Assembly (NCBI GenBank): GCA_001443395.1
Contig: LDXK01000001.1
Span: forward strand, 47,426-111,425
Length of the DNA stretch: 64,000 nucleotides
DNA from: a candidate division WWE3 bacterium CSP1-7
GTDB lineage: Bacteria; Patescibacteriota; WWE3; 9FT-COMBO-53-11
Direction of reading: 5' to 3'
The first letter of the stretch is position 1. Each line of letters opens with the position of its first letter. Both the position numbers and the translations under genes were made by a program. Below, one piece after another: positions 9,957-52,595 of the stretch. The notes below the pieces were generated by a model. It did not search any database, had not been told where the DNA came from, and worked only from the letters and a program-made list of their open reading frames with translations.

Positions 9957-10001
9957 TGGACGGCCGCCTATGGCGACCTAGCATTTTGAAGAAACAAAAT
10001 G
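9957..10001 (+). repeat. Structured intergenic repeat, copy J (TGGACGG-hairpin-CCTAGCAT, then a second hairpin CATTTTG-AAGAAA-CAAAATG containing the ndh ATG)
   Basis: Hairpin 1 GGCCGCC-TAT-GGCGACC. Hairpin 2 pairs CAU with the start AUG. Confidence 0.7.
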
Positions 10002-11168
10002 AAAACAGAAAACATTGTTATCCTGGGCGGGGGCTTTGGTGGTTTTAGGACGGCCCTGAACCTAGAGAGGTCTCTCCGAAGAGATCGCCGGTATCGGATC
10101 ATCCTAATCGATCAGAATACGTTCCACCTGTACACCGCCAGCTTGTACGAGGTGGCGACCGGAGAGCTTTCTCCCCGGTGTGTCCTCCTTCCTTTTCATC
10201 GCTGTCTCGACCACAAAAAAATTGATTTCATTAATGCGACCGCTACCGAGCTCGATCCGGTTAAAAAGATCATCAAAACCAGTTCCGGCGATCAAATCCC
10301 CTACTGGAAGCTGGTTTTCGCTTTGGGAGGTGACACCGAAGATTTCGGCATTCCGGGCGTGACTCAATTCGGCTTGGGGATAAAATCGGTTACCGACGCG
10401 GAGCGGATCCGCCAAAACCTGGCCCGTTGCGCCGTCACCAAGGGACAAGCGGTTAAGGTCGTCGTGGGCGGGGGCGGATTCGCCGGAGTTGAAGTGGCCG
10501 GGGAACTCACCGGATACCGCGGTTGTCCGGTCGAGGTGACGGTGATTGAAGCCGCTCCTCGAATCCTGAGCGGGCTTCCGGAAATAATTTCCAAAACCGT
10601 GTCCCAGAGACTCAATCTTCTCGGAGTAAAAATCACCACCTCCTCGCCCATCAAAGAAGTCGGGTCGGATCGAATCCTTCTCGCCACCGGACGGGAAATC
10701 TCCTACGACGTCTTGATTTGGACGGCCGGGGTGCGGGGATCGCGTTTCCTAAACCCGAATGTTTTTCCGCTCGATAAAAAGAAGGCTCTGGTCGTGGATC
10801 GGTATCTCCGCGTCAAGGGGTTCGAGGATATCTTCGTGGTGGGTGACAACGCCGCCACGGGAGTAGCTTGGACCGCCACCAAAGCTGAGGCGGATGGCAG
10901 GATCGCGGCCCGCAACATCGTCGCCCAGGTTCGCAAAAAGCCCCTGAGGGCTTACCGAGTCTTCGAACCGCCGTTCATTATCCCGGTCGGGAGAAATTGG
11001 GCAATCGCCAAGGTCGGTTCGATGATCTTCTGGGGAAGACCCGCTTCAATCCTCAAAGATTTAGTGCTTTTCAACTACCTGATCAAAATTGTGCCAATTT
11101 GGAAGGCCTGGAAAATCTGGTGGCGGGGGGAATCCGAGGCACTGGAAATCAAGCGGCCCGTTTCCTAA
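9999..11168 (+). CDS. ndh: Type II NADH dehydrogenase / FAD-dependent pyridine nucleotide-disulfide oxidoreductase
   Basis: Two Rossmann dinucleotide-binding motifs ('ILGGGFGG', 'VVGGGGFAG') and an amphipathic C-terminal tail. Confidence 0.75.
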   Translation: MKTENIVILGGGFGGFRTALNLERSLRRDRRYRIILIDQNTFHLYTASLYEVATGELSPRCVLLPFHRCLDHKKIDFINATATELDPVKKIIKTSSGDQIPYWKLVFALGGDTEDFGIPGVTQFGLGIKSVTDAERIRQNLARCAVTKGQAVKVVVGGGGFAGVEVAGELTGYRGCPVEVTVIEAAPRILSGLPEIISKTVSQRLNLLGVKITTSSPIKEVGSDRILLATGREISYDVLIWTAGVRGSRFLNPNVFPLDKKKALVVDRYLRVKGFEDIFVVGDNAATGVAWTATKAEADGRIAARNIVAQVRKKPLRAYRVFEPPFIIPVGRNWAIAKVGSMIFWGRPASILKDLVLFNYLIKIVPIWKAWKIWWRGESEALEIKRPVS

Positions 11169-12625
11169 TCCAACTCGAGGATTTTTAACGCTCCCGCGAT
11201 CCGGCTGACCGTCTTTTCCTTACCCAAAACATCCATGCACTCGAAGAGAGGAGGAGAAACGGCCTGTCCCGTCACGGCAACTCTCAAGAGCATGAATAGT
11301 TCCGGGGCTTTCCACCCTTTTTCTTGGGACAGTCCTCGCGCCTCCTCTTCCAACCGCCCTGTCCTCCAGTCGTCCTCCTTCTCGAATCGGGCCAGAGCCT
11401 CCCTCAGTTTTTCCGCCGCCGATCCGGCCGATCCTCCCTGCTCGGCCAACTCTTCTTTGGTCCAAGCCACATCATTGAAGAAAAATCCCGCCAGGCCTTC
11501 AAACTCCCCCAACTTCTTGATTCTTTCCTTAACCAAAGGCGAAATCTTCTGCAGGATCTCGGGGTCGACGTCTAAACCGCGGTATGTTTTTAGGTATTCT
11601 CCTAACTTTTCCGCAAGCGTTTGATCCCCCAAAGCCCGGATGTATTCCCCATTCATCCAATCAAGTTTCTCTCGATCAAAAACCGGGGCGGTCGGGGAAA
11701 TGCGACGCAAGTCGAGCTTCTCCACCAATTCCTCAATCGAGAAGATCTCCTTCCCTTGCGGATGGGACCAACCCAAAAGCGCCAGGAAATTCAACAGGGC
11801 TTCAGGCAGATATCCTTCTTCCTTAAATTCGAGGATTCCCACCGATCCATGTCGTTTGGAAAGTTTGGCCCGACTCGCTTCCCTCAAGACCGGGAAGTGG
11901 GCAAATTTCGGCGGCTCCCATCCAAAGGCTTGATAAAGCAGAATGTGCTTGGGAGTGGAAGAGATCCATTCCTCGCCACGCAGCACATGAGTTATCCCCA
12001 TTAGATGGTCGTCCACCACCACCGCCAGGTGATAAGTCGGATAGCCGTCCGATTTGATGAGAACCTGATCGTCCAGAACACTGTTCTCAAAGCCGATTTC
12101 GCCACGAATCAAATCGGCAAAAGATGTCCTCCCCTCTTCCGGAACTTTGAGCCTGATGACGAACTTCTCTTTTTTGGCCCGGGCGGCCGCAGCTTTGGGA
12201 TCAATTTTCCGGCAGAATCGGTCATAGCGGGGCGAGAGACCTTTCTTCTGGGCCTGCTGGCGGACCTCCTCCAAACGGGCCTCGCTGCAGAAGCAGTAAT
12301 AGGCGTGGTCGTTTTTGACCAAATCCGCGGCGTGCTCCAGATAGATGGGCAAGCGCTCGGACTGGCGAAGAGGGCCTTCATCCCAACCAAAACCCAACCA
12401 AGTCAACGCCTCCAAGATCTGGCCCTCGGCCTGGGGCAGGAAGCGAGCCCGGTCCGTGTCTTCAATCCTCAAGATAAATTTCCCATGGTTTTGCTTTGCC
12501 CAAGCCCAATTAAAGAGCGCGACATAGGCGGTGCCGACGTGGGGGGCGCCGGTGGGCGAAGGGGCGAGGCGCGTTTTGATCGCCGAAGATTCTTTTTTCG
12601 CCTTCATCTGAAGAAATCTTAACAT
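11165..12625 (-). CDS. gltX: Glutamyl-tRNA synthetase
   Basis: Class I HIGH-type motif 'PSPTGAPHVGTA' and a KMSKS-type 'KLSKRHG'. The start could be the ATG 18 nt downstream (MKAKK). Confidence 0.85.
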   Translation of the reverse strand: MLRFLQMKAKKESSAIKTRLAPSPTGAPHVGTAYVALFNWAWAKQNHGKFILRIEDTDRARFLPQAEGQILEALTWLGFGWDEGPLRQSERLPIYLEHAADLVKNDHAYYCFCSEARLEEVRQQAQKKGLSPRYDRFCRKIDPKAAAARAKKEKFVIRLKVPEEGRTSFADLIRGEIGFENSVLDDQVLIKSDGYPTYHLAVVVDDHLMGITHVLRGEEWISSTPKHILLYQAFGWEPPKFAHFPVLREASRAKLSKRHGSVGILEFKEEGYLPEALLNFLALLGWSHPQGKEIFSIEELVEKLDLRRISPTAPVFDREKLDWMNGEYIRALGDQTLAEKLGEYLKTYRGLDVDPEILQKISPLVKERIKKLGEFEGLAGFFFNDVAWTKEELAEQGGSAGSAAEKLREALARFEKEDDWRTGRLEEEARGLSQEKGWKAPELFMLLRVAVTGQAVSPPLFECMDVLGKEKTVSRIAGALKILELD

Positions 12626-12667
12626 TTTCCCGGAAGAAGAGGGGGGAATTTTGATAGACTTGAGAGG

Positions 12668-13762
12668 ATGAATCTCTACGAATTTGCCGCTTTCGTCCGG
12701 CGGGCCATAATCTACCTCGCGCTGGGAATCGCCGCGGCAGTCATCCTGTACTTTCTCTATAAACTGGCGGTAAACATCTATCTCACCATCTATCCCCCAC
12801 CCGAAACTCCCCCCACGGTGGGGTTCGGAAAACTGCCAAAGCTAAGGCTCCCATCTCTGGAGATTAAAGGAAAACCGGCCTACATTTTGGAAACGGCCAC
12901 CGGCCAGCTGCCGCAGTTCGACGACCGGGCCAATGTGGTGGCGATGAAACCAAGCCAGCCGACGCTTCTAGGAGAACAGAAGGCCCGAGAACTGGCGCGG
13001 GCGCTGGATTTTGGCGGGGAAGGAGACCTGAGCTCCGATAAGAAATTTCTCACTTTCCGAGATGCCACCGACGCCCGCACTCTCACCGTAAATGTCACCA
13101 ACCAAAACTTCACTCTCACCACGACTTTCGCCCGGATCAGCACTCTTCCCAAAGGGTCGGCCCCTTCCGGGCCGGAAGCGATCCAGGAAGCGCGGGATAT
13201 CTTGTCCCGCCTCGGGCTGCAGAAGTTCGGTTTTGAAGCCGGTAACCAAACCACCTCCTTCCGAGTGGCCAACTCACAGGGAATTGCCGCGGCCGGATCG
13301 CTCTCGGAGGCGCATTTCACCGAAGTGGACTTCTTCCGCTCCTTAACTGAAGTCGGTGACCAAAATTACCCGATCGTGCCGACCGATCCCAAGAAAGGCC
13401 TCATCCAAGTTTGGGTGACCACCGGACTTAAGCCGGAAATCAACAACATCCTGGGGGTTACCTACAACGCCCAGGAAACCGAGATCGATAAAACCCAGGT
13501 GGAAACTTATCCCATCGGCGATGTGATGGCGAACTGGGAGGAAATCAAGTCCGGCCAGGGAACGGCTTACGTGGGGTCGGCGGAAGACTTAAGCACCGTC
13601 CAGATCAATTCGATCACCCTAGCGTACTTCGACGATGCCGTCCACCAGAACTATCTGCAGCCGATCTACGTTTTCTCCGGCGTTGCCAAAACCGTTAGCA
13701 ACAAGGAAGTGGAATTCGTGGCTTATTCGCAGGCGGTTTCCGGAGATTGGCTAGAAGAATAA
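12668..13762 (+). CDS. Hypothetical membrane-anchored protein (N-terminal TM helix, large extracytoplasmic domain)
   Basis: Single N-terminal hydrophobic helix followed by a Thr/Ser/Asn-rich domain. No motif was recognised. Confidence 0.4.
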   Translation: MNLYEFAAFVRRAIIYLALGIAAAVILYFLYKLAVNIYLTIYPPPETPPTVGFGKLPKLRLPSLEIKGKPAYILETATGQLPQFDDRANVVAMKPSQPTLLGEQKARELARALDFGGEGDLSSDKKFLTFRDATDARTLTVNVTNQNFTLTTTFARISTLPKGSAPSGPEAIQEARDILSRLGLQKFGFEAGNQTTSFRVANSQGIAAAGSLSEAHFTEVDFFRSLTEVGDQNYPIVPTDPKKGLIQVWVTTGLKPEINNILGVTYNAQETEIDKTQVETYPIGDVMANWEEIKSGQGTAYVGSAEDLSTVQINSITLAYFDDAVHQNYLQPIYVFSGVAKTVSNKEVEFVAYSQAVSGDWLEE

Positions 13763-13764
13763 CG

Positions 13765-15075
13765 TTAGAGGTGGTGATCCACTCGTTTCATATCGCGGGG
13801 GAAGAGGCTGGCTTCCCGAATATTTGCTAGTCCCAAAGTCTGCATCGTCACCCGCTCCGCGCCGATCGCAAATCCCCCGTGAGGTGGCATCCCGTATTTG
13901 AAAGCCTGCAAGTAGAGCTCAAAATCTTTCGGATCATTTCCCCACTTCTTGATATTGGAAACCAGTTTGTCGTACTCGTGAATCCGCTGTCCCCCCGTCA
14001 CCCACTCCAACCCCCGGCCCAGCAGGTCAAAGCTCAGAGTAAGTTCGGAATCATCCGGGTCGGGATGAACATAAAAAGGTCTTTTGGAGGTGGGAAAATG
14101 GGTGATAAAAACCATCTCCGAACCGTGTTTCTTTTTTGCCCATTCGCAAATGTCTTTTTCATCCTCGGGTGAGAGGTCCGGATCGCCACGGACGTCCCGG
14201 CCGGTCTCTTTGAAAATGACTTCCTGCGCCTCTTGCAATTTCAAACGAGGAAAGTGGGTCTTGTAAACCGGCAGCGTGGCCGAATAAAGAGCCATCTCTT
14301 CCTGACAGTTCTCCTTTATCCCCTTGAATATTCCCAAAGTCACTTTTTCGGCCAGGTCCAACAGGTCCGTCCAGTCCTCCAGGAATCCCATCTCGCAATC
14401 CAGGCTCACATACTCGGAGAGGTGGCGGGTTGTTTCGGAAGGTTCGGCCCGAAAGGCTTTGGTAACCGTGAAATCCCTCTCGAAAACTCCCACCATGATC
14501 TGCTTGTAGAGTTGGGGGCTCTGTCCCAAAAAGGCCTTTTTGTCATAGTACTCGACCGGGAAAACCTGCGCTCCCCCCTCGGTAACCGAAGGAACAATCG
14601 TCGGAGCCTGGAACTCGGTAAAATCCAAACCCTTCAGGATCTGGCGAAAGGAACTCACGATCACCTCTTGAACCTTGAAGATCGCTTTTACTTTGGGATG
14701 CCTAAGGGTGAGCGGACGGTAATCCAAGAGAGTCGGGAGTTCCACGTCGAGTTTCTCTTTGGTGATATCAAACGGAAGCTCTTGGGAGTGCGCCAAAACA
14801 TCAATCTTGGAAACTTTCACCTCAACTTTTCCGGTCGGAAGGTGGGGGTTGATATTCTTTTCTCCTCTTTCTTTGACCTCGCCGTTAACCCGAATCACAT
14901 CTTGAACGTTGAGAACGGCGGCATCCTCACCGCAAACGAGCTGGGTAATTCCCGTCCGGTCAATCAAATCGATAAAGATCAGCTTTCCGTGATCGCGGCG
15001 GTTGTAAACCCAACCGGATAGGCAAACTTTTTTTCCAATTTTCTCGGGAGTTTCCGCGGAGAGTGTTCTTTCCAC
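13765..15075 (-). CDS. aspS: Class IIb aminoacyl-tRNA synthetase, most likely archaeal/eukaryotic-type aspartyl-tRNA synthetase (AsnRS not excluded)
   Basis: N-terminal OB-fold anticodon-binding region, motif 2 'FRAEPSETTRHLSEYVSLDCEMGF' and motif 3 'GGFAIGAERVTM'. The ~436 aa length fits AspRS2 and AsnRS. Confidence 0.65.
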   Translation of the reverse strand: MERTLSAETPEKIGKKVCLSGWVYNRRDHGKLIFIDLIDRTGITQLVCGEDAAVLNVQDVIRVNGEVKERGEKNINPHLPTGKVEVKVSKIDVLAHSQELPFDITKEKLDVELPTLLDYRPLTLRHPKVKAIFKVQEVIVSSFRQILKGLDFTEFQAPTIVPSVTEGGAQVFPVEYYDKKAFLGQSPQLYKQIMVGVFERDFTVTKAFRAEPSETTRHLSEYVSLDCEMGFLEDWTDLLDLAEKVTLGIFKGIKENCQEEMALYSATLPVYKTHFPRLKLQEAQEVIFKETGRDVRGDPDLSPEDEKDICEWAKKKHGSEMVFITHFPTSKRPFYVHPDPDDSELTLSFDLLGRGLEWVTGGQRIHEYDKLVSNIKKWGNDPKDFELYLQAFKYGMPPHGGFAIGAERVTMQTLGLANIREASLFPRDMKRVDHHL

Positions 15076-15089
15076 GCTCTAATGATAAC

Positions 15090-16530: not shown

Positions 16531-16562
16531 TGGACGGCTCGGCTATGCCGAACCTAGCATTC
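16531..16562 (+). repeat. Structured intergenic repeat, copy F (between rel start and recJ stop)
   Basis: TGGACGG + GGCTCGGC-TAT-GCCGAACC + TAGCATTCC, followed by CATTCC-GGAG-GAATG and ATGTGA (start-stop). Confidence 0.65.
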
Positions 16563-18189
16563 CGGAGGAATGTGAAAGTTTTACATCCCGCGCTTTCAAG
16601 GTGATGCTTTCCTTACCTTGCCAGGATTCAATCTGAGGAGTGTAGGCAAAATCAATGGTCTGGCCGCGAGCCAACGGTTGGGTGGCGTTAAACCACAAAA
16701 CCTCAAATCCCGGGGCGACCCCCAGCTTGAGGTGGTTCTTCCCGCGCCCCACTTTTTTGACCTGTAAAACAGTTGCGCCCTCGGCCAGAAAAACCGGTTC
16801 GGGATTATCAACTCCGTGAGGAGAGAAATCCTGCAGTTCTTTAACCAACCCGGAATCAATCATCTCCAACGGAAGGGGGAAGTCAATCTTGAGAACGGGA
16901 CGCGGGTCTAGTTTTGACAATTCCGGGTCGGCGTTTTTACGGACGGTTTTTATAAACTCTTCCAGTTTCTCGGTTCTGATCGTAAAACCGGCGGCGGCGG
17001 CGTGACCGCCAACATCCTCCAATAATTTGCCCGCTCCGCGCAAAACATCCACAATATTTAAACCGTTAACCGAACGGGCGGAGCCTTTGGAGAAATCCTT
17101 GCCTTGGGAGATCACGATCGCCGGCCGACCGTACTCCTCGACAATTTTGCCGGCTACCAAACCGATGATTCCCTCATGCCAGGAATCGTGATGGATGACA
17201 ATCAGTCCTTCCTCGCCCTCTACCAATCCCTTGGCGTGGTCGAAGGTATGCACCGTCAGTTCCTGCCTCTCGGTGTTGACTCGATTGAGAACCTGAGCCA
17301 GCTGGTGAGCCCGGGTAGGATCGGTAGTGCACAGGAGGCGCAGCGCCTCAATCCCGTGTTTGAGCCGGCCGACCGCATTGATCCGCGGGCCAAACACCCA
17401 TCCCGCCGCGTAGCTTCCCAGTGTTCCCGGCTTAAGGCCGGCAATCTCCGCCAGAGCCAGCAGGCCGGGACGCTCCAACCGGTTAAGCACCTCAAATCCG
17501 GATCTCACCAGCGAGCGGTTCGCTCCCAGAAGCGGCTGCAGATCCGCCACCGTGGCGATCGCCACGAGATCAAGACTAGGGTCTAGGGAATAGGGTTTAG
17601 GGGGTAGCTGAGATGCCAGCAACCAGGCGATGCCGGTGCCGCAGAGGGCAGTGGTGTGGACAATGGCGTAGGCCTTCGGTAATTTTCGGGGTTTGAGGTG
17701 GTGGTCGGTGATGATCAGATCAGCTCCCAATTCTTTGATCAGGTCCGCCTCCGCCCCGGCCGTTATTCCGGAGTCGACTGTGATAATCAAACGGCAACCC
17801 TCCCCCACCAGTTTTTTGATTGCGGCGGCGCCCAGGCCGTACCCCTCCTCAAAACGGTCGGGAATGTGGGGAAGGGCTTTTGCCCCCAGTCCGTACAACG
17901 TTTGCCACAGAACCGCGGTGGCGCAGATACCATCCACATCGTAGTCCCCCCAGACAATAATCTTCTCCCCTTTTTGAATGGCGGTTTTGATTCGAGAAAC
18001 AGCGCGGTTGAGCTGGTCTTGATCAAGATCGGAAAAATACTTGGCGGATTGGGCAATCAGATCGCTTGGTTTGGGAGGGGTGAAGAATTCCTCCTGGTTC
18101 TTGATTCCCCTATTACCGAGAAGAGTTCTTTTGATTTCTTCCAGATTATCCGGCTTCCGGTCGCTAACCAATTCCCATCGTTTTTTCAT
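16543..18189 (-). CDS. recJ: Single-stranded-DNA-specific exonuclease RecJ
   Basis: DHH motifs 'VWGDYDVDG' and 'ITDHH', followed by a DHHA1-like region. Confidence 0.85.
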   Translation of the reverse strand: MKKRWELVSDRKPDNLEEIKRTLLGNRGIKNQEEFFTPPKPSDLIAQSAKYFSDLDQDQLNRAVSRIKTAIQKGEKIIVWGDYDVDGICATAVLWQTLYGLGAKALPHIPDRFEEGYGLGAAAIKKLVGEGCRLIITVDSGITAGAEADLIKELGADLIITDHHLKPRKLPKAYAIVHTTALCGTGIAWLLASQLPPKPYSLDPSLDLVAIATVADLQPLLGANRSLVRSGFEVLNRLERPGLLALAEIAGLKPGTLGSYAAGWVFGPRINAVGRLKHGIEALRLLCTTDPTRAHQLAQVLNRVNTERQELTVHTFDHAKGLVEGEEGLIVIHHDSWHEGIIGLVAGKIVEEYGRPAIVISQGKDFSKGSARSVNGLNIVDVLRGAGKLLEDVGGHAAAAGFTIRTEKLEEFIKTVRKNADPELSKLDPRPVLKIDFPLPLEMIDSGLVKELQDFSPHGVDNPEPVFLAEGATVLQVKKVGRGKNHLKLGVAPGFEVLWFNATQPLARGQTIDFAYTPQIESWQGKESITLKARDVKLSHSSGMLGSA

Positions 18190-21288: not shown

Positions 21289-21332
21289 CAATTTTTCTTA
21301 AAAATTGCTAGCCCGCTTAGGCGGGCGTCCAA
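21289..21332 (-). repeat. Structured intergenic repeat, copy M (upstream of the wHTH-MNT gene)
   Basis: Minus strand TTGGACG + CCCGC-CTAA-GCGGG + CTAGCAAT, then CAATTTTT-AAG-AAAAATTG, then the SD and ATG. Confidence 0.65.
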
Positions 21333-22490: not shown

Positions 22491-22628
22491 GCTTTACTGG
22501 ACTAGTAACCTCAAATCGTACCCTTTCATTACTCAATGTAACAAGATTGGAATCGGGGTTGCAAGTGCTGTCCTCGCTTACGCTCGGTTGCACTAATTAC
22601 TCGCTAGCGCTGCGTCATTAGTTCCGAG

Positions 22629-22659
22629 AAGGACGGCTTGGCTACGCCAAACCTAGCCT
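22629..22659 (+). repeat. Structured intergenic repeat, copy G (degenerate)
   Basis: AAGGACGG + GCTTGGC-TAC-GCCAAAC + CTAGCC, then TTAGC-TTT-GCTAA, then a GTG start at 22681. Confidence 0.5.
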
Positions 22660-22680
22660 TAGCTTTGCTAAAGTTAAACC

Positions 22681-26309: not shown

Positions 26310-27125
26310 TTAGTTCACCTCCAAATCAACTCTCTCTATCCTTTTTAGCTCATTGTTGAGGGAAAATTCAAGAAGAACCGCCCGAAAAACCGCCGGACCT
26401 TTTTCCACCCATTCGAACGGTTCGGCCGTTCCATCCTTAAGGCGATCAATAATTACCCGAGGCTCAACTCCCAAAACGGAATCCCGGGCCCCGGTCATCC
26501 CAATATCGGAAACGTATCCCGTCCCCTCAGGCAGGATCGTCGGATCGGCGGTGGGGACGTGGGTGTGCGTTCCCAAAACGGCGGCCACCCGGCCGTCCAG
26601 AAAGAAACCCATGGCCCGCTTCTCACTGGTCAGTTCGGCGTGGAAATCAACGAAGACCATCTCTGCGGAAATTTTCTTCAACAACTCATCCACGGCATGG
26701 AAGGGATTCGCGACATCACCGGCGAGCCAGGTATTTCTTTTATCACTGGCGAGTTTTTCCCCCAGAAATTCCCAACCCAAGAGGCTCACAATGGCGACCT
26801 TTTTCCCGCCTATCTCAACAATCTTGGAACCCACACCGGGCGTTGCTTCCGGCAAATTTGCCGGCCGGATGACCGGGACGGCGGGATCAGAGAAGGGCTC
26901 ATTCGGATCAAGGTAAAAAATATGGTCGCCGGAAGTGAAGAGATCAACTCCTGCTTTCTGAAGTTCGCGGAGATGTTCGATTTTGGCCCCCCGGCCGTGG
27001 GTTACGTTCTCGGCGTTTGCCACCGCAAAATCGATCTTTTCTTTTTTCTTGAGATTAGGGAGAAGCTGCTCAACCGCGGCTCGGCCAATTTTTCCGACAA
27101 CATCGCCGATGAAAAGAATGCGCAT
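26310..27125 (-). CDS. ymdB: YmdB-like metallophosphoesterase (2',3'-cyclic-nucleotide phosphodiesterase family, TIGR00282)
   Basis: 'MRILFIGDVVGKIGR...DFAVANAENVTHGRG' N-terminus. Downstream of rny, as in the Bacillus rny-ymdB arrangement. Confidence 0.75.
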   Translation of the reverse strand: MRILFIGDVVGKIGRAAVEQLLPNLKKKEKIDFAVANAENVTHGRGAKIEHLRELQKAGVDLFTSGDHIFYLDPNEPFSDPAVPVIRPANLPEATPGVGSKIVEIGGKKVAIVSLLGWEFLGEKLASDKRNTWLAGDVANPFHAVDELLKKISAEMVFVDFHAELTSEKRAMGFFLDGRVAAVLGTHTHVPTADPTILPEGTGYVSDIGMTGARDSVLGVEPRVIIDRLKDGTAEPFEWVEKGPAVFRAVLLEFSLNNELKRIERVDLEVN

Positions 27126-28348
27126 TAGACTTGGGATTCAAACCGAGCTTCGCGGATCACGACCACCCTTACTCCTCCCGGTGTGACAACTTGATCCTTA
27201 ATCCGCTTGCCGATCTCCTGGACCAACTGCGCCGAACGTTCATCGGAAACCTCCCCGGCCTTCACGATCACTCGAAGTTCCCGGCCGGCGGTAATCGCAT
27301 AGGCATCATCAACTCCGGAAAAAGACTTGGCGATGTTTTCCAGGTCGGTCACTCGTTTGACGTACCCCTCAATATCCTCGTAACGAGCTCCGGGACGGGA
27401 GCCGGAAATGGCATCGGCGATGTAAACCAATTCGGCTTCGATCGATTTCTTTTCCTCCCGGCCGTGGTGGGAAGCCGCCGCGTTGACCAGTTTTTCCGGA
27501 AATCCAAAACGTTCCAGAATCTTTCTGGTCAAGATGTCATGGGGCTCACCGGATTCGGAGGTTGCCACCTTGCCGATGTCGTGAAAAAGAGCCGCGGCCT
27601 TAGCGAGCTCCACATCCGCCCCCACCTCCGCCGCCAGATAACTCACCAGCTTAACCATTTCCAGAGAGTGCTTCGCCAGATTTTGACCGTAGGAGGTCCG
27701 AAACTTGAACCGGCCTAAGAGCTCAACAATCCCGCCGGGCAGCCCTCCCAAGCCTGTTTCCAACGCCAGCTGTTCTCCTTCGCGGCGGATCTCGTGATCG
27801 ATGTCACCTTTAACCGAGGAAACGACGGTTTCGATGTTCTCGGGCTGGAAGCGATCCTCCTTGATGAGCCGTTCCAGGGAGAGACGAGCGATGTGCCGGC
27901 GGACCGGGTCAAACGAGGAAATCCGCACCGCTTTCGGAGATTCCTCCAAGTCCAACTCCACTCCCGTCGCCCGTTCGAAAGCCCGGACGTTGCGGCCCTC
28001 CTTGCCGATGATTTTGCCCTTCCAATCTTCGGATGGAAGCTCCACCACCGAAACGGTAAATTCCGCCACGTAGGAAGTGGCAGCGTGCTCCATCGCAGAA
28101 ACGAGAATGTCGCGGCTGCGATCCTCCGATTCCGCTTTGATCTGCTCCTCCACCTCAGCCATCCGCTGCGCTTTCTCATTCACCAACTCCTGGTCCAACT
28201 CCTTGAGAATCATCTTGCGCGCATCTTCCCGCGATAACGCGGCCGACTTCTCGAGCTCTTTCAGGTATTTTTCTTTCAGTTGTTCGACGGAGAGATTATC
28301 CGGAGACTCCGGACTTTCCGAAGGGTCTTTGATTTTTTTGTCTTTCAT
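27125..28348 (-). CDS. rny: Ribonuclease Y (KH + HD domains; no N-terminal TM helix)
   Basis: Coiled-coil N-terminus, KH 'KGKIIGKEGRNVRAFERATGVEL' and HD 'AALFHDIGKV'. Confidence 0.8.
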   Translation of the reverse strand: MKDKKIKDPSESPESPDNLSVEQLKEKYLKELEKSAALSREDARKMILKELDQELVNEKAQRMAEVEEQIKAESEDRSRDILVSAMEHAATSYVAEFTVSVVELPSEDWKGKIIGKEGRNVRAFERATGVELDLEESPKAVRISSFDPVRRHIARLSLERLIKEDRFQPENIETVVSSVKGDIDHEIRREGEQLALETGLGGLPGGIVELLGRFKFRTSYGQNLAKHSLEMVKLVSYLAAEVGADVELAKAAALFHDIGKVATSESGEPHDILTRKILERFGFPEKLVNAAASHHGREEKKSIEAELVYIADAISGSRPGARYEDIEGYVKRVTDLENIAKSFSGVDDAYAITAGRELRVIVKAGEVSDERSAQLVQEIGKRIKDQVVTPGGVRVVVIREARFESQV

Positions 28349-28389
28349 TTTGGTTTACCAAAATGCTAGGGCGTTTCTGCGCCCGTCCA
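28346..28389 (-). repeat. Structured intergenic repeat, copy A (rny leader)
   Basis: Minus strand TGGACGG + GCGCAG-AAA-CGCCC + TAGCAT, then CATTTTGG-TAAA-CCAAAATG (includes the rny ATG). Confidence 0.7.
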
Positions 28390-28413
28390 TTTTTTTGCAT
28401 CCTTCTTTGTAAA

Positions 28414-33896: not shown

Positions 33897-33938
33897 TATC
33901 TTGAATAGGACGCCCGCCTCAGGCGGACTAGCTATCCG

Positions 33939-34520
33939 CTAACGCGAATAGTATTCGATCACCATCTTCTCGTTGACCTCGGGACCAATTTCTTCCCGAG
34001 CCGGAAAGGCGGCGATCCTGGCAATCATTTCCTTCTTGTCCACTTTTATCCAGGAAGGACGGATCACTTCATCGTAAATGATTGCACCTTTTTTAGCAAA
34101 GGTAATTTTATCACCAACCGCAACCAAAAGCGACGGGATCGTCACTCGCCTTCCATTCACCTTCACCAAACCGTGGGCCGCCATCTGTCGAGCGTGCGGA
34201 CGAGTGCTGGCAAAACCGGCACGGTAGAGCACGTTGTCCAACCGCCGTTCCAAAAGCTGGAGCAAGACTTCCCCGGTTTTTTCTTTACTGCCAAGGGCAT
34301 TCTTGAAATAGCGTTGGAACTGTCCTTCCCGAACCCCATAGATCCGTTTGGCCTTCTGTTTTTCGCGAAGCTGAAGACCATACTCGGAAAGGCGACGACG
34401 GAAAGCACCGTGCTGACCGGGAGCGGACATCCTCGTTTTGACCGGACAATTGTCGCGGCCGCAGAGCGGAACGCCTTCGCGCCGGCAGAGTTTGTGGGTG
34501 GGACCGGTGTATCTACCCAT
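33939..34520 (-). CDS. rpsD: 30S ribosomal protein S4
   Basis: N-terminal zinc-ribbon-like 'CRREGVPLCGRDNCPV' and an S4 domain. Confidence 0.9.
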   Translation of the reverse strand: MGRYTGPTHKLCRREGVPLCGRDNCPVKTRMSAPGQHGAFRRRLSEYGLQLREKQKAKRIYGVREGQFQRYFKNALGSKEKTGEVLLQLLERRLDNVLYRAGFASTRPHARQMAAHGLVKVNGRRVTIPSLLVAVGDKITFAKKGAIIYDEVIRPSWIKVDKKEMIARIAAFPAREEIGPEVNEKMVIEYYSR

Positions 34521-34553
34521 TTAAACGCGTCTCCTGTTCTTGGGACGGGGGCC

Positions 34554-34585
34554 ATTGGACGGCTCGCCTGCGGCGAACCTAGCAA
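34554..34585 (+). repeat. Structured intergenic repeat, copy H (between rpsD start and rpsK stop)
   Basis: TTGGACGG + CTCGCC-TGC-GGCGAA + CCTAGCAAT. Confidence 0.65.
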
Positions 34586-34639
34586 TGTCCCGCTTACTGT
34601 CTCCGAACTGAAATTTTGTCATAGTATTTTCTTTATCCA

Positions 34640-35011
34640 TTACACTCTTCGGCGGTTCTTTGGCCGCGGGCCATTGTGGGGGATCGGGGTCACATCGGTG
34701 ATCGCTGTGACTTCCAGCCCACCAACTTTTAAGGCTTTGATCGCGGAATCGCGGCCGGGTCCCGGCCCCTTTACCAAAACAGAAACTTCTTTAACACCCA
34801 ATTGACGGGCGGATTTCGCGATGGCCTCGGCGGCTTGAGAAGCGGCAAAGGGAGTCGCCTTTTTGGTTCCTTTAAAACCGGCCGTCCCCGCCGAGCCCCG
34901 CACGATCACTCCCCCGACCTCCTCCCCGATTGTAATCAACGTGTTGTTGAAAGTGCAGGTGATGTGGGCTACTGCTCTTTCCGGTATTTTGCGTTCTTTC
35001 TTTTTTGACAT
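34640..35011 (-). CDS. rpsK: 30S ribosomal protein S11
   Basis: '[16 protein letters not shown]...[10 protein letters not shown]'. Start assigned to MSKKKERK, because the longer ORF runs through a repeat-element copy. Confidence 0.85.
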
Positions 35012-35056
35012 TTTTTGTTTATTCAAAATGCTAGGTCGTTTCTTCGGCCGTCCATT
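35009..35056 (-). repeat. Structured intergenic repeat, copy C (rpsK leader)
   Basis: Minus strand TGGACGG + CCGAAG-AAA-CGACC + TAGCAT, then CATTTTG-AATAAA-CAAAAAATG (rpsK ATG). Confidence 0.7.
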
Positions 35057-35459
35057 AGGTCTTTTCGGACTTCTTCGCCGCGATCGCGGACTTGCTCGTT
35101 CCGGCAATCGCCATCTTCCGACCTCTTCGGGTGCGGGCATTGGTCTTGGTTCTCTGCCCCCGCACCGGCAAACCCCGGGCGTGTCTCATTCCTCGATAGG
35201 ACCCGATCTCTTGGAGACGCTTAATATTATTAGCCGTTTCGGCTGCCAGTTCTCCCTCCACCCGGTAACCGCTCTTCTGAATTACCTCCCTAATCTTACC
35301 AACCTGTTCCTCCGAGAGATCTTTGACACGGATCTCGGGTGACACTCCGGCTTCCGCGATAATTTTTTTGGCCAAAGTGGTACCGATCCCCCGGACGTAG
35401 GTGAGGGCCACCTCCACTCGCTTTTCAACCGGTAAATCAACTCCTTCAATTCTTGACAT
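35055..35459 (-). CDS. rpsM: 30S ribosomal protein S13
   Basis: '[26 protein letters not shown]'. Confidence 0.9.
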
Positions 35460-35503
35460 TTTTATCTTTTAATCATCCTTGGACTGTCCTCGCTAAAGCT
35501 CGG

Positions 35504-35533
35504 TTGGACGGTCGCCTTAGGTGACCTAGCAAT
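35504..35533 (+). repeat. Structured intergenic repeat, copy I (between rpsM start and rpmJ stop)
   Basis: TTGGACGG + TCGCC-TTA-GGTGA + CCTAGCAAT. Confidence 0.65.
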
Positions 35534-35570
35534 CTCTCTACACTCGATTGTACAAACATAGTTCTTATAG

Positions 35571-35684
35571 TCATCCTTGTCTCTGTTTGTGCTTGGGATT
35601 CTTGCAAACGACGTAGAGACGCCCCTGGCGCTTAATAATCTTGCAATCTCTGCAAATTTTTTTAACTGATGCTCTAACTTTCAT
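35571..35684 (-). CDS. rpmJ: 50S ribosomal protein L36 (37 aa; not in ORF track)
   Basis: Manual translation gives [37 protein letters not shown]. It has the C-x2-C...C-x4-H zinc ribbon of L36. Confidence 0.85.
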
Positions 35685-35730
35685 TTTCTTTTGAAAGATA
35701 GCGATTTCTCATCGCGTCCTTTCATCGTTT

Positions 35731-42063: not shown

Positions 42064-42280
42064 TTTGTTTCTCTACCAAAACTTCCTTCAGAATTTCTTT
42101 CTCACCCATAGCCGTCATCACCCGCGCCGCCTCCCGCCGTTTTTTGCTAATCGTGGAGGTGTCGGCCAAGGAACCGATCGCCCGCTTGCCGCGGAGCTGG
42201 GAAATCTCCGCCTGCGTCTCCGCCAAAACCTTGCGGAGCTCCTTCTCCTCTTTTTCGCGAAACTCTTTCATTTTGCTCAT
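42044..42280 (-). CDS. rpmC: 50S ribosomal protein L29
   Basis: Helical 'ELRKVLAETQAEISQLRGKRAIGSL'. Confidence 0.85.
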   Translation of the reverse strand: MSKMKEFREKEEKELRKVLAETQAEISQLRGKRAIGSLADTSTISKKRREAARVMTAMGEKEILKEVLVEKQNGKKKA

Positions 42281-42316
42281 TTTTTCAAAATGCTAGGTCG
42301 TTTCTTCGGCCGTCCA
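42278..42316 (-). repeat. Structured intergenic repeat, copy D (rpmC leader; near-identical to copy C)
   Basis: Minus strand TGGACGG + CCGAAG-AAA-CGACC + TAGCAT, then CATTTT-GAA-AAAATG (rpmC ATG). Confidence 0.7.
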
Positions 42317-45119: not shown

Positions 45120-45856
45120 CGCTTCTTGCTCTTTGTCTTTCGCTTAGGGCCAACCGTCTTTTTTACTACTTTCACTGGCTTTATCGCCTTTACCACTTTT
45201 ACCGTCTTTCTTTTCTCCGTCAATCTCTCCTTGAGCTTCCCAATGCTTTCCTGGAAAAAAACCAGATCGCCGGAGTTGAGAACCTCATAGGGATTCAGGT
45301 TCCCCACCAACTCCACCGTCGCGTCCGCCAGATTCCGGAAGGAACGGAAGACATTGGTATTCATTTCAGGAACGACCACCAAAGCTTTCCGAGTTTTGAG
45401 TTTCGCCAAAAGCTGTTGGGCAACGGCGGTTTTCGGCTCTTTGAAAACTGGGTCCACGACCACCCAAACCCTTTCCGCCGCCGCTTTGGCAGAGAGTGCC
45501 GACCGTAACGCCAAGTCCTTAACCTTTTTGGTCAGAAGCGCCTCAAAGGTGCGAGGCCGGGGACCAAAGGTTATCCCCCCGCCAACCCAAATCGGAGAAC
45601 GAACCGAACCGTGCCGCGCCCGCCCCGTGCCCTTCTGGGCCCAGGGTTTGCGTCCCCCACCGGAGACCTCACCCCGAGTCTTGGTGGCCACCGTTCCGGC
45701 CCGCTGGATGTTCCGATAGACGTGGATGTACTGACGCAGGACCGTGAGGTTTGGCTTCACTCCAAAGATATCCTCCGGCAGTTCAATCTTCTTTTCGGTT
45801 TTTACTCCCTTCGCGCTATAGATACTAACTTTCATGGTCTTTTCATGAAATTGCAA
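45116..45856 (-). CDS. rplD: 50S ribosomal protein L4 (K-rich C-terminal extension)
   Basis: '[19 protein letters not shown]'. Start possibly at MKVSIY (45835). Confidence 0.85.
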
Positions 45857-45880
45857 CCCCCTTTAGCGGGGACAGCACTC

Positions 45881-48166: not shown

Positions 48167-48177
48167 TGGACTAGTAG

Positions 48178-48206: not shown

Positions 48207-48251
48207 GCCCCTTGTTTCCCCCCAGAGATGATTTTCTGCGCCACGTTCTCC

Positions 48252-48335: not shown

Positions 48336-48343
48336 AGACCATC

Positions 48344-50446
48344 TTACTCACGCTTCCCACCGGAAATGATTTTTGAGGCAACACTTTCCGGGACGCGTTC
48401 GTAATGAGATGGTTCAATGTTAAAAGTTCCTCTTCCCGATGTCAAGGAACGAATGGTAGTGGCGTAGCCAAAAATTTCGGCCAGCGGCACAATTGCTTTG
48501 ATGACCTGGGCATTGCCGCGCGAATCCGTTCCCTGGATCTGTGCCCGCCGGGAAGAGAGGTCCCCCATCGTTTCCCCCAGATATTGCTCGGGAATAATAA
48601 CTTCAATTTTCATAATCGGCTCGAGCAGGACCGGCTTCCCCCGCCGGCATCCCTCCCGGGTAGCTTCGGAGGCGGCAATCTGGAAGGCAATATCGGAGGA
48701 ATCCACCTCGTGAAAAGAACCATCGAACAGCGTCGCCCGCAGATCAATCATCGGATATCCGGCCAAAACTCCTTTGCCGAGAGCCTCTTTCACGCCTTTT
48801 TCGGAGGGCGGAATAAATTCGACCGGAATTGATCCACCCCGAATCGCATTCACAAATTCGAAACCGGATCCCGGGGGCAGCGGTTCGTACTTGAGGAAGA
48901 CATGCCCGTATTGCCCTCTCCCCCCCGACTGGCGAATGTACTTACCCTCCTGCTCAACCATGGCGGTGATCGTTTCCTTGTAGGCCACCTGGGGAGCGCC
49001 GACGTTTGCCTCGACCCCGAATTCCCGTTTCATTCGGTCAACCAGAATCTCCAGGTGAAACTCCCCCATTCCCGAGATGAGAGTTTCCCCGGTTTCGTGG
49101 TTGGACGAAATCTTGAAAGTCGGGTCTTCTTCCGCCAGTTTCTTCATCGCCTCTCCTAACTTCTCCTGGTCGGCCTTGGTCTTGGGTTCGATCATCACCG
49201 AAATCACCGGTTCGGGGAAGGAAATGTTTTCCAAAATTATCGGGGATTTTTCGTCCGAAAGACTGTCGCCGGTGGTGGTCTGCGCCAAACCAACCGCTGC
49301 GCCAATCTCTCCCGCCCCAATCTCGGGAATCTCTTCGCGAGAGTTGGCGTGCATCAGGAGAATGCGGCTGATTCTCTCCTTGACACCCTTGGTGGCATTA
49401 AGAACGTAGGAACCGGAAGAAATTTTGCCAGAATAAACTCGAAAGAAAGTTAATCGACCGACAAACGGATCGGTTTGAACTTTGAAGGCCAGCGCTGCGA
49501 ATGGTTCACTGGTGTCGGCTTTGTGGGTCGTTTTGTTTCCGGAAAAATCCAGCCCCTCCACCGCCGGCCGATCCAAAGGCGAGGGCAGGTAATCCACCAC
49601 CGCATCCAAAACTTTTTGCACTCCTTTGTTGTGCAGGGAGGATCCGCAGAGAACCGGAAAAACCTGACCGGTAAGGGTCGCCCGACGCAGGGCTTCTTTC
49701 AGCTCTTCATCCGAAATCTCCTGCCCCGCCAGATATTTTTCCAAGAGCTGCTCGTCCTCTTCGGCAATCGCTTCAATCGTTTTCGCCCGGTACTGGGCCA
49801 TCTTTTCTTTGAATTCCTCCGGCACCTCCTCCTCAATGACATCCTCCCCCAACTTCCCCTCGAAGCGGTAGGCTTTCTGCGCCAGGACGTCGATCATCCC
49901 GGAAAAATCACCTTCCCGGCCAATAGGAAAATTCAGGACAACCGTCTTGGCGTTTAGTTTCTCTTTGATGGAGGCAAGATCCTCATCAAAATCGGCCCCG
50001 ATCTTGTCCATCTTGTTGATAAAACAGATCCGCGGAATGTTGTACTTGTCGGCCTGCCGCCAAACTTTTTCGGATTGGGGCTCAACTCCTTCCTTTCCAT
50101 CAAAAACCACCACCGCCCCATCCAAGACTCGGAGGGAACGCTCCACCTCCGCCGTAAAATCGACATGGCCGGGAGTGTCGATAATGTTAATCCGGCAGTC
50201 CCGCCAAAAAGTGGTTGTGGCCGCGGCGGTAATCGTTACCCCCCGCTCCCGTTCCTGGACCATCCAGTCCATCACTGCCGCCCCCTCGTGGACCTCGCCG
50301 ATCTTATAGGTCCGACCGGTGTAATAGAGGAACCGCTCGGTTGTGGTCGTTTTACCCGCATCGATATGGGCGATGATCCCGATGTTTCGAACCTTATCGA
50401 GCGCCGCTTTGAATCCTATCTTATGTGAAAGTTTTTCTTCAACCAT
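48344..50446 (-). CDS. fusA: Elongation factor G
   Basis: '[14 protein letters not shown]' and the EF-G domains II-V. Start assigned to MVEEK at 50446, since the upstream in-frame ATG lies inside a repeat element. Confidence 0.9.
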
Positions 50447-50449
50447 GAT

Positions 50450-50480
50450 TTGGACGCGATTCTTTCGAATCGCTAACAAT
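50450..50480 (+). repeat. Structured intergenic repeat, copy K (in the divergent fusA / C39-like spacer, abutting the fusA ATG)
   Basis: TTGGACG + CGATTC-TTTC-GAATCG + CTAACAAT. Confidence 0.6.
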
Positions 50481-50579
50481 CTCATTCCATTCGATTGAAC
50501 GAATCATCTTACCAGAGCCAGGATAACGGAGCAACCGGCAAAATAGCAAACGACTAGACGCAGGATTTAAACTAAGAAG

Positions 50580-51488: not shown

Positions 51489-51539
51489 TTGGTGAAAAGT
51501 GAATTAAAATAAAGACAAAACCAAGATAAGGAGGGAGAG

Positions 51540-52562
51540 ATGGCGAAAAACGCTAGGGTCTTTCAGCCGCCGAGCCTTGCTGACCTTTATAGGAAGCATG
51601 AAAGCCTGCGAGTTTGGCGCGTCAAAAGCCTGAAGCGGCACCACGAGAAGAGCCGCCGCCTCCGTCAGCGCCGCAACTTCAAGCGCTATCGCATCCGGAT
51701 AATCGCCCGCCTACCGGGGGTAACCGTCTGGAGCATAGACGCGGATGCCCTTCGCGAAGGACTGGAAAAAGGCGATGTGGATTTCACGATGGGCGGGCAC
51801 GGATACACCCACCTCTATATCCCCCCAAATGAAATCTGGATCGCCAACGACCTACGGCGGCGTTCTGTCGTGCCGACAATCTGGCACGAATACTTTGAAC
51901 GGTTGCTGATGCGCGGGGGGATGCACTACAACACCGCCCACTCCCTCGCCTCTCGGCTGGAAATCACTCATCGGGAGGGAACCTACTTTGTTCTGCCGGT
52001 CGGAACTCATCACCAGAGAGAAGATGGCTTCTGCTTGCCGGCGACGCTCAAGATCTACCTAAGCTATCTGGGCCGGAACTTCTCCGAAGGACACCTTGCT
52101 CGGCTCTGCAAAACCACGGTCGAAAATGGCACCGATCCGATCAACGTCGTCACCGCGGTGCGCCGCCTTGGTTTCAGGGTCCAACATCGGGGCCGACCGC
52201 TGATGCTTCGGGAAATTCAGCGTTACTGCTCGGCCGCCGGAGCCAAGGGCAAGGAAAGGAAAGAGCTGACCAATCAAGTTCGCCGGCAAGCGGGCACCGT
52301 TCGGGTCCATCAAGCCTGGACCGCCGCGGAAGTCAAGAAGTCCCTCAAAAAGGGGCGGCCGGTCCTCGCCAACATCCAACTTAGCCGGGAGTACAAAAGC
52401 GGGCACTATCTAGTGGTCATCGGCTACACCAGCAACACCTTCGTCGTCAGTGACCCGAACGACGATAACGGTTACCGGGAAATCCCGATCCCCGAGTTCA
52501 TGAAGCTCTGGTATGAACTTGAGGACGGCACCGTTCGCGAAGGTTTTACAATCTCGTCTTAG
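51540..52562 (+). CDS. Paralog 2 of the middle-domain + C39-like peptidase fusion (Arg-rich N-terminus, internal insert)
   Basis: About 45% identical to paralog 1 by eye. Conserved 'DFTMGGHGY', 'IWHEYFER..LM.GGM', 'REGTYFVLPVGT', Cys in 'FCLPATL', 'GHYLVVIGY' and 'VVSDPNDDNGY'. Confidence 0.6.
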   Translation: MAKNARVFQPPSLADLYRKHESLRVWRVKSLKRHHEKSRRLRQRRNFKRYRIRIIARLPGVTVWSIDADALREGLEKGDVDFTMGGHGYTHLYIPPNEIWIANDLRRRSVVPTIWHEYFERLLMRGGMHYNTAHSLASRLEITHREGTYFVLPVGTHHQREDGFCLPATLKIYLSYLGRNFSEGHLARLCKTTVENGTDPINVVTAVRRLGFRVQHRGRPLMLREIQRYCSAAGAKGKERKELTNQVRRQAGTVRVHQAWTAAEVKKSLKKGRPVLANIQLSREYKSGHYLVVIGYTSNTFVVSDPNDDNGYREIPIPEFMKLWYELEDGTVREGFTISS

Positions 52563-52595
52563 CGAGATTGCTAGGTTCGCGAAGCGATCCGTCCG
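52549..52595 (-). repeat. Structured intergenic repeat, copy E (3' of C39-like paralog 2)
   Basis: Minus strand CGGACGG + ATCGC-TTC-GCGAA + CCTAGCAAT, then CAATCTCG-CTAAGA-CGAGATTG. Confidence 0.6.

Follow-up and report, generated by a model that had tools for sequence, protein, structure and literature searches.

The REP sequences (repetitive extragenic palindromes) and REPINs of Proteobacteria are moved by RAYT transposases, which are of the Y1 HUH type, and most of their copies form close inverted doublets, the REPINs. The ends of IS200/IS605 elements and their miniatures (PATEs and miniature inverted-repeat transposable elements, MITEs, of the Nezha type) are strand-specific single-stranded DNA (ssDNA) hairpins with mismatches; these elements insert 3' of a short word without a fixed duplication, and an internal segment is complementary to the cleavage or target word. 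The mycobacterial MIRUs, reportedly described by Supply and colleagues in 1997, are said to be repeats of 40-100 bp, often tandem and intercistronic, with ends that overlap the flanking stop and start codons, and the Rickettsia RPEs, reportedly described by Ogata and colleagues in 2000, are said to be selfish palindromes of 100-150 bp in small genomes, mostly intragenic, which can lie in frame within protein-coding genes. Selfish DNA is thought to be scarce in Patescibacteria, whose genomes are very small. Here we analyse a stretch of 64,000 nucleotides from the candidate division WWE3 bacterium CSP1-7 (contig LDXK01000001.1, positions 47,426 to 111,425; hereafter the window), in which an initial annotation had noticed 13 short repeats, lettered A to M, each with a GC-rich stem between conserved flanks, and knew of no described class with this architecture. 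REP/REPIN sequences and IS200/IS605-type hairpin ends do share it; its sequence does not place the family among them, nor do the genes in the DNA sampled, and it belongs to no described family. We think it probable that the repeats are small, non-autonomous, REP/MITE-like mobile DNA elements of a WWE3 subclade of the Patescibacteria.

The full unit consists of an (A/T)TG word, a first hairpin (H1) set between GAC and CTAG, and a second hairpin (H2) of the form X'-loop-X; measured from GAC onwards, the unit is most often 44 nt long. H1 is GC-rich, with the invariant triplets GAC and (C)TAG, which stay unpaired, on either side of its foot. H2 is AT-rich and follows directly after CTAG; its 3' arm ends in (A/T)TG, where the 5' (T/A)TG word recurs. 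The element first described is thus real but makes up about half of the unit, because H2 and the preceding (A/T)TG were missed. Its flanks are indeed conserved and asymmetric but are not the ends of the element, since the 3' CA(T/A)T is the first arm of H2. That the stem varies and yet remains complementary is borne out by covariation on two alignments. On a MAFFT alignment of the window copies that was not fitted to any structure, 85% of the stem cells are paired versus 60% in shuffles, double changes occur in seven of the eight stem pairs, and the covariation score is 0.465, compared with at most 0.064 for slid registers; covariation recurs in 90 further copies from four other genomes. Contiguous H2 pairs, counted from the first base after CTAG, average 6.1 versus 3.0 in shuffled tails, pairing over the first five positions reaches 88-97% versus an expected 48-73%, and an H2 of 5 bp or more is present in 126 of 158 distinct units (80%) from an independent metagenome sample. 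The 5' word also pairs with X' at positions -2 and -3 (79% and 77% versus 58% and 52% expected), a weaker signal than that of H2. Two predicted folds, a long hairpin with a GAC/TAG internal loop and H1 plus H2, are nearly equal in energy. We rejected a strict long hairpin, in which an outer stem X:X' surrounds H1, as it has modest support beyond the constant TG/CA: this stem averages 3.6 bp versus 2.2 bp for permuted flanks, and X' pairs better within H2.

The stems turn over quickly between related sites. Unit M has CCCGC/GCGGG in the window versus CCCC/GGGG in its orthologue in SMAG_U7991, the closest of four related genomes, and unit C has GGCCG/CGACC versus GGCCGCC/GGCGACC. At the same time, a canonical 22-nt H1, GACGGCCGAAGAAACGACCTAG, is identical at 29 loci where the flanks differ and the tails are related but not the same, and H1 stems and H2 tails are reshuffled in many combinations. 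The two strands of the unit are not equivalent. Position 3 of H1 is C.A on the TGGACG strand, and hence G.T on the complement, in 33 of 47 sense copies coupled to a start codon and in 32 of the 51 remaining copies; further wobble positions share this strand asymmetry, and folding is more stable for the complementary strand in 79 of 98 units. Whichever strand is transcribed, the same strand pairs better; in the majority class this is the template strand, which the mRNA does not contain. These findings speak against selection for a hairpin in the mRNA. The asymmetry favours either recognition of a DNA strand or an inherited family signature. The original reading of the repeats as a structure under selection, taken as structured RNA, is therefore not the best one: the opposite strand folds better, and copies are gained and lost between near-identical strains, as are selfish DNA repeats.

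How close do the described families come? In the way it works, the family is nearest to REP/REPIN sequences and to IS200/IS605-type miniatures. Like REP/REPIN sequences, the units are short imperfect palindromes (20-40 nt) in many copies, mostly extragenic and often within operons, with an unpaired motif at the stem foot, compensatory stems, a conserved mismatch, clusters and lineage-specific abundance. They differ in that CTAG on one strand and GGAC on the other precede the stem and GT(A/G)G is not the head, whereas REPs are defined by a conserved 5'-terminal tetranucleotide GT(A/G)G directly before the palindrome (PMC3686654). They further differ in being mostly single or in direct tandem, with inverted nested pairs at few loci (L017, L024 and L040), in carrying a second hairpin and a terminal ATG within the unit, in the absence of a RAYT from the 1.4 Mb of DNA sampled, and in their host, a bacterium of the candidate phyla radiation (CPR) with a small genome. 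Strand-specific hairpins with mismatches, insertion 3' of a short word, seamless empty sites lacking a fixed duplication and an internal segment complementary to the target word liken them to IS200/IS605 miniatures; unlike these, the unit has only about 44 nt, a single segment (X') would serve both ends, the target is just (A/G/T)TG, no TnpA or TnpB is seen nearby, and no orientation strand bias is obvious within the window. With MIRUs they share intercistronic placement and the overlap with stop and start codons, but MIRUs lack a covarying hairpin with invariant flanks and reside in an unrelated host lineage. In-frame copies in an RluA-type gene, rplM and recJ recall the RPEs, from which the family differs by its length of about 44 nt and its location mostly at gene junctions.

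The 13 copies first listed are all present, with the flanks ascribed to them, and the window holds 14 in total: an additional H1 at 33909-33931(+) is recovered both by searching for the pattern and by a covariance model of the 13 copies. Run over the window, this model matched the 13 and 33902-33939(+), with E-values from 3e-10 to 9e-4, and no further copies at E <= 1. The pattern GGACG-N8-26-CTAGC occurs 12 times versus 1.22 +/- 1.09 in dinucleotide shuffles, none of 100 shuffles reaching 12, an enrichment of the combined motif of about 10-fold over chance. CTAGCAWT occurs 11 times versus 1.73 expected, while TTGGACG alone is not enriched (15 in the window versus 10.5 expected). Of a supposed partial copy at 221-246(-), adjoining tRNA-Glu, only the CTAGCAAT side is present as a relic with a short stem and without the GGACG side, and the model does not match it at E <= 1. 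A degenerate copy at 35697-35720(-), GGACGCGATGAGAAATCGCTATC, in the infA-rpmJ spacer, falls under the model threshold.

Beyond the window, we scanned one exact and fairly strict pattern against one genome per species for 185,579 species. The 35 stretches that matched all lie in four Patescibacteria metagenome-assembled genomes (MAGs) of the WWE3 clade: candidate division WWE3 RBG_19FT_COMBO_53_11, SMAG_U7991, LejiaD_55_383 and BMS9Abin34. All are distinct from the window genome; SMAG_U7991 is about 87% identical to it and the others 72-78%. The scan of related genomes that the initial annotation had called for gave a positive result, with the family found genome-wide and in related Patescibacteria and the model matching 90 copies in 249 kb of pattern-selected loci from these four MAGs. 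At least 115 groundwater and sediment metagenome stretches (JGI) match the exact pattern and contributed 158 further distinct units, and the same scan of viral contigs found no copies. A comparison with Rfam, likewise called for, matched no family: at the gathering score, Rfam 15 finds only three tRNAs in the whole window and no copy of the repeat, and at E <= 5 nothing between 31.5 and 36 kb overlaps a copy. In the literature on CPR, WWE3 or Patescibacteria with REP, palindromic or IS200 repeats we found nothing that describes this family.

All 14 window copies are intergenic or overlap gene ends, in both orientations, as had been claimed; the genes concerned are rplM, rpsI, rpoA, rpsD, rpsK, rpsM, rpmJ, rplP/rpmC, recJ, the RNase Y gene, fusA and two C39-like genes. 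The unit sits immediately 3' of an (A/G/T)TG. Of 98 units in the window and the four genomes, 47 end in an ATG, GTG or TTG that opens an open reading frame (ORF) of 60 codons or more, and 85 of 212 distinct units are start-coupled in a pooled sample that includes the independent metagenome set. In 71 of these 85 an ATG also lies directly 5' of GAC, and this leading ATG is often preceded or overlapped by the upstream stop codon (TAATG, TGATG, TAAATG). Most surviving copies occupy tight stop/start junctions of operons (TAATG, TGATG, AAATG). In co-directional spacers we count 45 sense and 20 antisense copies, the sense copies lying at a constant 14-16 nt from the next start. Other copies persist at the 3' ends of genes, where they point the opposite way, or in spacers between divergent or convergent genes, and some are intragenic and in frame. 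A leader peptide or mini-ORF starting from the upstream ATG was considered and rejected, since the lengths are not multiples of three (mod 3 = 2/0/1 in 42/27/16 units).

Five window units supply the start codon of a gene. The terminal ATG of unit J (9957-10001, +; TG, then H1 9959-9981, GACGGCCGCCTATGGCGACCTAG, and H2 9982-10001, CATTTTG-AAGAAA-CAAAATG) starts the Pyr_redox_2 gene 9999-11168, and that of unit A (28346-28389, -; H1 28366-28387; H2 28346-28365, CATTTTGG-TAAA-CCAAAATG) the RNase Y gene 27125-28348. Unit B (32275-32322, -; H1 32295-32320, H2 32275-32294) provides the start of rpsI. Unit C (35009-35054, -; H1 35031-35052 with the canonical sequence, H2 35009-35030) lies between the rpsM stop, formed by its 5' TAATG, and the start of rpsK, its terminal ATG, and unit D (42278-42316, -; H1 42293-42314 with the canonical stem, H2 CATTTT-GAA-AAAATG) follows the rplP stop and starts rpmC (L29). 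The others are placed differently. Unit M (21289-21331, -; H1 21308-21329; H2 21289-21307, CAATTTTT-AAG-AAAAATTG) lies in the spacer between a DUF3048 gene and the next gene, and unit L (31797-31838, +; H1 31799-31817 with the short stem CGAC/GTCG; H2 31818-31838, AAATTTTGC-GAA-GCAAAATTT) between a convergent LigT-like gene and rpsI. Two divergent spacers hold unit G (22630-22673, +; H1 22632-22656, then a short hairpin TTAGC-TTT-GCTAA) and unit K (50451-50497, +; H1 50453-50476, a CTAA variant; H2 50477-50497, CAATC..GATTG), the latter flanked by fusA and a C39 peptidase gene and located 6 nt upstream of what is probably the fusA ATG, on the opposite strand. Unit H (34553-34587, +), antisense in the rpsK-rpsD spacer, has an outer stem CATTG/CAATG enclosing H1 (34558-34582) and no clear H2, and unit I (35505-35550, +; H1 35507-35529; H2 35530-35550, CAATC..GATTG) is antisense in the rpmJ-rpsM spacer.

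Several units have altered coding sequence, and the claim that copies provide the C-terminal codons of rplM, recJ and a C39-like gene proved correct. The rplM ORF continues across unit B, which adds a C-terminal extension of about 14 residues, ..MDGSANAEPSILKK*. Unit F (16531-16572, +; H1 16533-16557; H2 16558-16572, CATTCC-GGA-GGAATG) is antisense to recJ and contains its final eight codons and stop, while the recJ of a relative ends ..SH*, two codons past the junction. Unit E (52549-52595, -; H1 52571-52593; H2 52549-52570, CAATCTCG-CTAAGA-CGAGATTG), also antisense, covers with its H2 the last codons and stop of the C39-like gene 51540-52562. The 14th copy (33907-33951, +; H1 33909-33931, GACGCCCGCCTCAGGCGGACTAG; H2 33932-33951, CTATCCGC-TAAC-GCGAATAG) lies antisense between rpsD and rpoA, and its H2 encodes the rpsD C-terminus YSR* as TAT TCG CGT TAG versus TAC TCA AGA TAA in relatives. 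The original TCA AGA TAA persists downstream of this copy. This re-encoding is either the result of selection restoring the conserved S4 terminus or a striking coincidence. In two other genomes (L036 5040-5260 and L011 860-1010), an RluA-type pseudouridine synthase gene carries an in-frame insertion of 21 codons immediately ahead of the catalytic HRLD motif, made up of a unit and a 25-nt duplication; the duplication repeats the peptide GIGGRAGI and lies where the target contained GGAAT(C/T)G twice. A second, inverted unit is also in frame 70 nt upstream in L036. Together, the extended rplM and recJ, the re-encoded rpsD and the interrupted RluA-type gene look like tolerated damage typical of selfish repeats.

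Comparison with relatives shows that individual units come and go. The clearest case, polarized by an outgroup, is the rplW/rplB junction: it is empty in the window (AAGTGACC) and in WWE3-RBG L013 (AAAATGAC) and filled in SMAG_U7991, which reads AAGTAAATG|GACGGCCGAAGAAACGACCTAGCATTTTTTAATAGACAAAAATG|ACAAGACC, the unit being GAC..CAAAAATG. Conversely, the site of unit F is empty in the 87%-identical genome (L014), which reads TTTCAGTGAGAAAG, and the whole block of about 87 bp around unit G is missing there. The recJ/secF junction has a unit only in the 87%-identical relative, and the site of the 14th copy is empty in both SMAG L016 and Lejia L025. At site J the single unit of the window corresponds to two tandem units in the SMAG relative, and as the stem of the extra unit differs from that of its neighbour, the array cannot stem from simple slippage. 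Differences exist even among co-occurring contigs that are 98.4-99.9% identical to the window: unit I is missing in two of them (L005/L010), unit M in two others (L047/L051) and unit C in one (L007), where exactly 43 nt are gone and the sequence reads TAATG|GTAAAAAAG, while one strain contig has an extra unit at the start of secD. The flanks of these polymorphic alleles are locally more diverged than the contig average, so that allele exchange by recombination is part of the picture. At rplW/rplB, rpsM/rpsK, the 3' end of recJ and the start of secD, a filled site reads RTG|GAC..WTG|flank and an empty one RTG|flank, and across sites the flanking direct repeat ranges from 2-3 nt to 25 nt. Arrays occur as well: direct tandems repeat every 40 bp, each pair of neighbouring units sharing one ATG that closes the first and leads the second, and in nested inverted arrays the units are linked by CAATTG, which is self-complementary. 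Other sites are occupied across genomes. Unit B is conserved in SMAG L016, the site of unit L is also occupied in Lejia (L025:1-41), the rplP-rpmC junction of unit D holds two units in WWE3-RBG L013, and the degenerate site at 35697-35720 has a full unit in Lejia (L025 3848-3891). The spacer of unit H is occupied in Lejia (L025 2797-2836), whereas SMAG has an unrelated repeat there, and at the site of unit C SMAG has a unit with a different stem.

A mobile hairpin repeat would account for these observations as follows. H1 would be recognized as ssDNA on the ATGCTAG..CCGTCCA strand, and units would be copied in and lost seamlessly, either through a hairpin-specific nuclease or transposase working by a logic like that of IS200/IS605 and RAYT systems, or through microhomology-guided template switching between matching (A/T)TG-ended flanks. 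The invariant GAC/CTAG, the fast-changing stem, the conserved mismatch and the strand asymmetry are of the kind recognized by ssDNA enzymes of the TnpA/RAYT type, and seamless filled and empty sites after a short word agree with this logic. At the stop/start junctions the old ATG stays in front, and the terminal ATG, with its A-rich and sometimes Shine-Dalgarno-like leader, serves as the new start. Insertions would be tolerated mainly where leader and ATG can replace the displaced start, which would explain both the positional bias and the excess of sense copies. Any consequences for the mRNA (a hairpin between cistrons, for instance, or a start codon lying within the H2 stem) are probably by-products, of which the host may make some use. 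A more specific proposal is a 'start-codon cassette' of about 44 nt: a strand-specific GAC/CTAG DNA hairpin would integrate after (A/G)TG, typically at a stop/start junction, would bring its own leader and ATG and so could enter the dense operons of a streamlined CPR genome with no loss of genes, and would be moved by an enzyme not recognizable as a Y1/RAYT transposase, while complementarity between the upstream ATG context, CATTTT and the new ATG would act as an AUG-exposure switch. We put this forward tentatively and regard it as rather doubtful in this full form.

Several observations weigh against the reading as a mobile element. In 1.4 Mb of partly redundant sequence around copies we found neither a RayT-like ORF (phmmer with E. 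coli RayT, E <= 1) nor an ORF with the Y1/HUH motif P[DENSQ]HxH, and the sampled DNA contained no full-length element bounded by H1/H2-like ends. With translations read by eye, the genes adjoining clusters at two loci look ordinary (a GTPase that is probably YchF, MetK, GyrA and a Xer-type recombinase); inspection of flanks gave a probable HAD hydrolase, and no transposase-like ORF was seen between inverted copies from translations only, without a family library. The sites of D, H, L and infA-rpmJ are occupied in genomes only 72-78% identical, which could mean function rather than hot spots. Some of the strain gains and losses may be allele exchange or slippage deletion between the flanking repeats and not transposition, and a flanking repeat varying from 2-3 to 25 nt is a misfit with a classical transposase. 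Given this variable repeat and the lack of a Y1 ORF in the DNA sampled, template switching and slippage deletion fit at least as well. Lastly, an invariant GAC/CTAG around a fast-changing stem shows that some agent imposes a constraint. The Xer-type tyrosine recombinase gene mentioned above (L024 778-1671) lies on a 3-kb contig between three nested units (579-672) and another at 2005-2043; it is the only recombinase seen adjoining a cluster, and its position is probably a coincidence.

Could the units instead be a host RNA module that punctuates operons? H1 would then be a site for a protein or RNase, H2 would toggle the exposure of the start codon, and the copies would tune core genes. Such a module can draw on the fact that about half of the copies place the start codon within the 3' arm of H2 at a constant spacing, on covariation among three segments (the 5' flank, the stretch following CTAG and the 3' arm) together with two folds of nearly equal energy, and on ribosomal-operon spacers that are, in some cases, occupied across 72-87% identity with compensatory stem changes. 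The H2 loops vary as GAAG, GAGG and GGAG, as if to tune Shine-Dalgarno strength. However, a Shine-Dalgarno-like word is present in only 36 of the 85 start-coupled units, about one third of the copies in co-directional spacers are antisense and others convergent, divergent or intragenic, the C.A mismatch weakens the hairpin in the transcribed strand of the majority sense class, presence varies between strains more than 98% identical, and Rfam holds no such family. We therefore consider a host module unlikely. Its detailed form, in which CAUUUU pairs with either the upstream AUG context or the true AUG while H1 stabilizes or processes the polycistronic mRNA, seems to us improbable to the same degree. 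Transcription termination is a far poorer fit. Rho-independent and possibly bidirectional terminators with shared flanks would explain the GC-rich stem-loop, the A-run before and T-run after class-1 copies (AAAAATG..CATTTT) and the flagging of copies A and B by a terminator scan. Yet these are two of nine scorable copies (plus one degenerate) in 21-36 kb, both antisense to genes, terminator-like sites are not enriched (28 versus 22.9 +/- 4.9), the T-run lies 5 nt from the stem, and copies sit between the co-transcribed ribosomal protein genes rpmJ-rpsM-rpsK-rpsD-rpoA. Nor would termination explain the invariance of GAC/CTAG or the coupling to start codons, and we regard it as very improbable.

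It is also conceivable that the family spreads without any dedicated enzyme, by template switching, tandem slippage, quasi-palindrome correction and strain exchange after DNA uptake. That each unit ends in the short word that also flanks it, that the flanking repeat varies in length up to the 25-nt duplication, that tandem arrays exist, that H1 and H2 combinations are shuffled and that no transposase lies in the sampled DNA would all be expected. What such spread leaves unexplained is the invariance of GAC/CTAG amid stem turnover, the conserved C.A/G.T position, the tandem unit at J whose stem differs from its neighbour's, and the presence of the same 22-mer at at least 29 unrelated loci, and we judge it quite unlikely as the full account. 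Further identities were tried and rejected. A sigma-70-type promoter (TGGAC as -35, TAGCAT as -10) does not fit, as a promoter scan flags no copy, the spacing is 13-20 nt and one third of the copies are misoriented. A classical MITE derived from a DDE transposon would have inverted repeats at its ends, which GACGG.. and ..AAAATG are not, and a duplication of fixed length, which the variable flanking repeat is not. In an integron attC site, GAC/CTAG would have to resemble the core sites RYYYAAC/GTTRRRY; they do not, nor do they pair with each other, and the flanking genes are housekeeping genes and not cassettes. The defining motifs of a tRNA-like structure or CCA-minihelix and of a K-turn are missing from the sequence.

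Other repeats occur in the window and in related sequences. A second dispersed hairpin family, GTGCTGTCCTCGC-nnn-GCTCGGTTGCAATTT, shares the architecture of the first, with an outer stem GTGC/GCAC, an internal loop and a covarying inner stem CCTCG/CGAGG. Its copies lie at 5910-5931(+), 22569-22591(+), 35485-35507(+) and 45853-45874(-) in the window, and elsewhere at L007 3831, L016 5710, L019 6076, L026 5671 and 6755, L028 3298, L041 845, L044 5294 and 5483, and L045 1534; one copy is just upstream of tRNA-Gln. Unit G adjoins the copy at 22569-22591, and unit I directly follows the CTCGGTTG of a copy. In SMAG_U7991, a different repeat of about 85 bp (ATCAATTATCAATTATCAATTAACAAATATTTG..CAATTGTTAATTTGCGAC.GAAAGGAGC) with a Shine-Dalgarno sequence at its end fills the rpsK-rpsD and rpmJ-rpsM spacers (L016 ~2640-2720 and ~3600-3680); the orthologous segments of the window, 34520-34640 and 35460-35570, hold units H and I at exactly these places. 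The ribosomal-operon spacers are being swapped between repeat families. Convergent genes are in places separated by short arrays in which a truncated H1 (AACGG..CCTAGA) and a hairpin ATTCGGC-GAAT-GGCCGAAT alternate (L043 2184-2273, L042 ~2050-2130 and L044 6850-6940), while the orthologous window site 13762-13776 has no array; this hairpin is another partner module for H1. The rpmJ (L36) gene, at about 35570-35686(-) between infA and rpsM, is below the 90-aa limit of the ORF listing and is uncalled in related contigs. Through their ATG and CTAG words, the units give rise to spurious long ORFs or to over-long starts (28363-29247(+), 34173-34805(+), 34863-35342(+) and 48344-50485(-)). The first 13 codons of the fusA ORF are such an over-long start derived from a unit, and gene callers disagree on the starts of rpsK, rpoA and secY among near-identical contigs.

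A repeat that is present at about one in five gene junctions of the window and polymorphic in a natural population contributes actively to genome change in a CPR lineage. The regenerated ATG and the in-frame extensions offer such a repeat a route through essential operons, where units could alter translation initiation, operon coupling and protein termini. In practical terms, the units can serve as strain markers and are a source of gene-calling errors, including spurious ORFs, wrong starts and fused genes. The invariant GAC/CTAG foot points to a putative hairpin-recognizing protein, and finding it would either extend the REP/RAYT-IS200 paradigm to the CPR or reveal a new route of mobilization. 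What sets the family apart is an architecture that replaces start codons, and its activity in a streamlined CPR genome.

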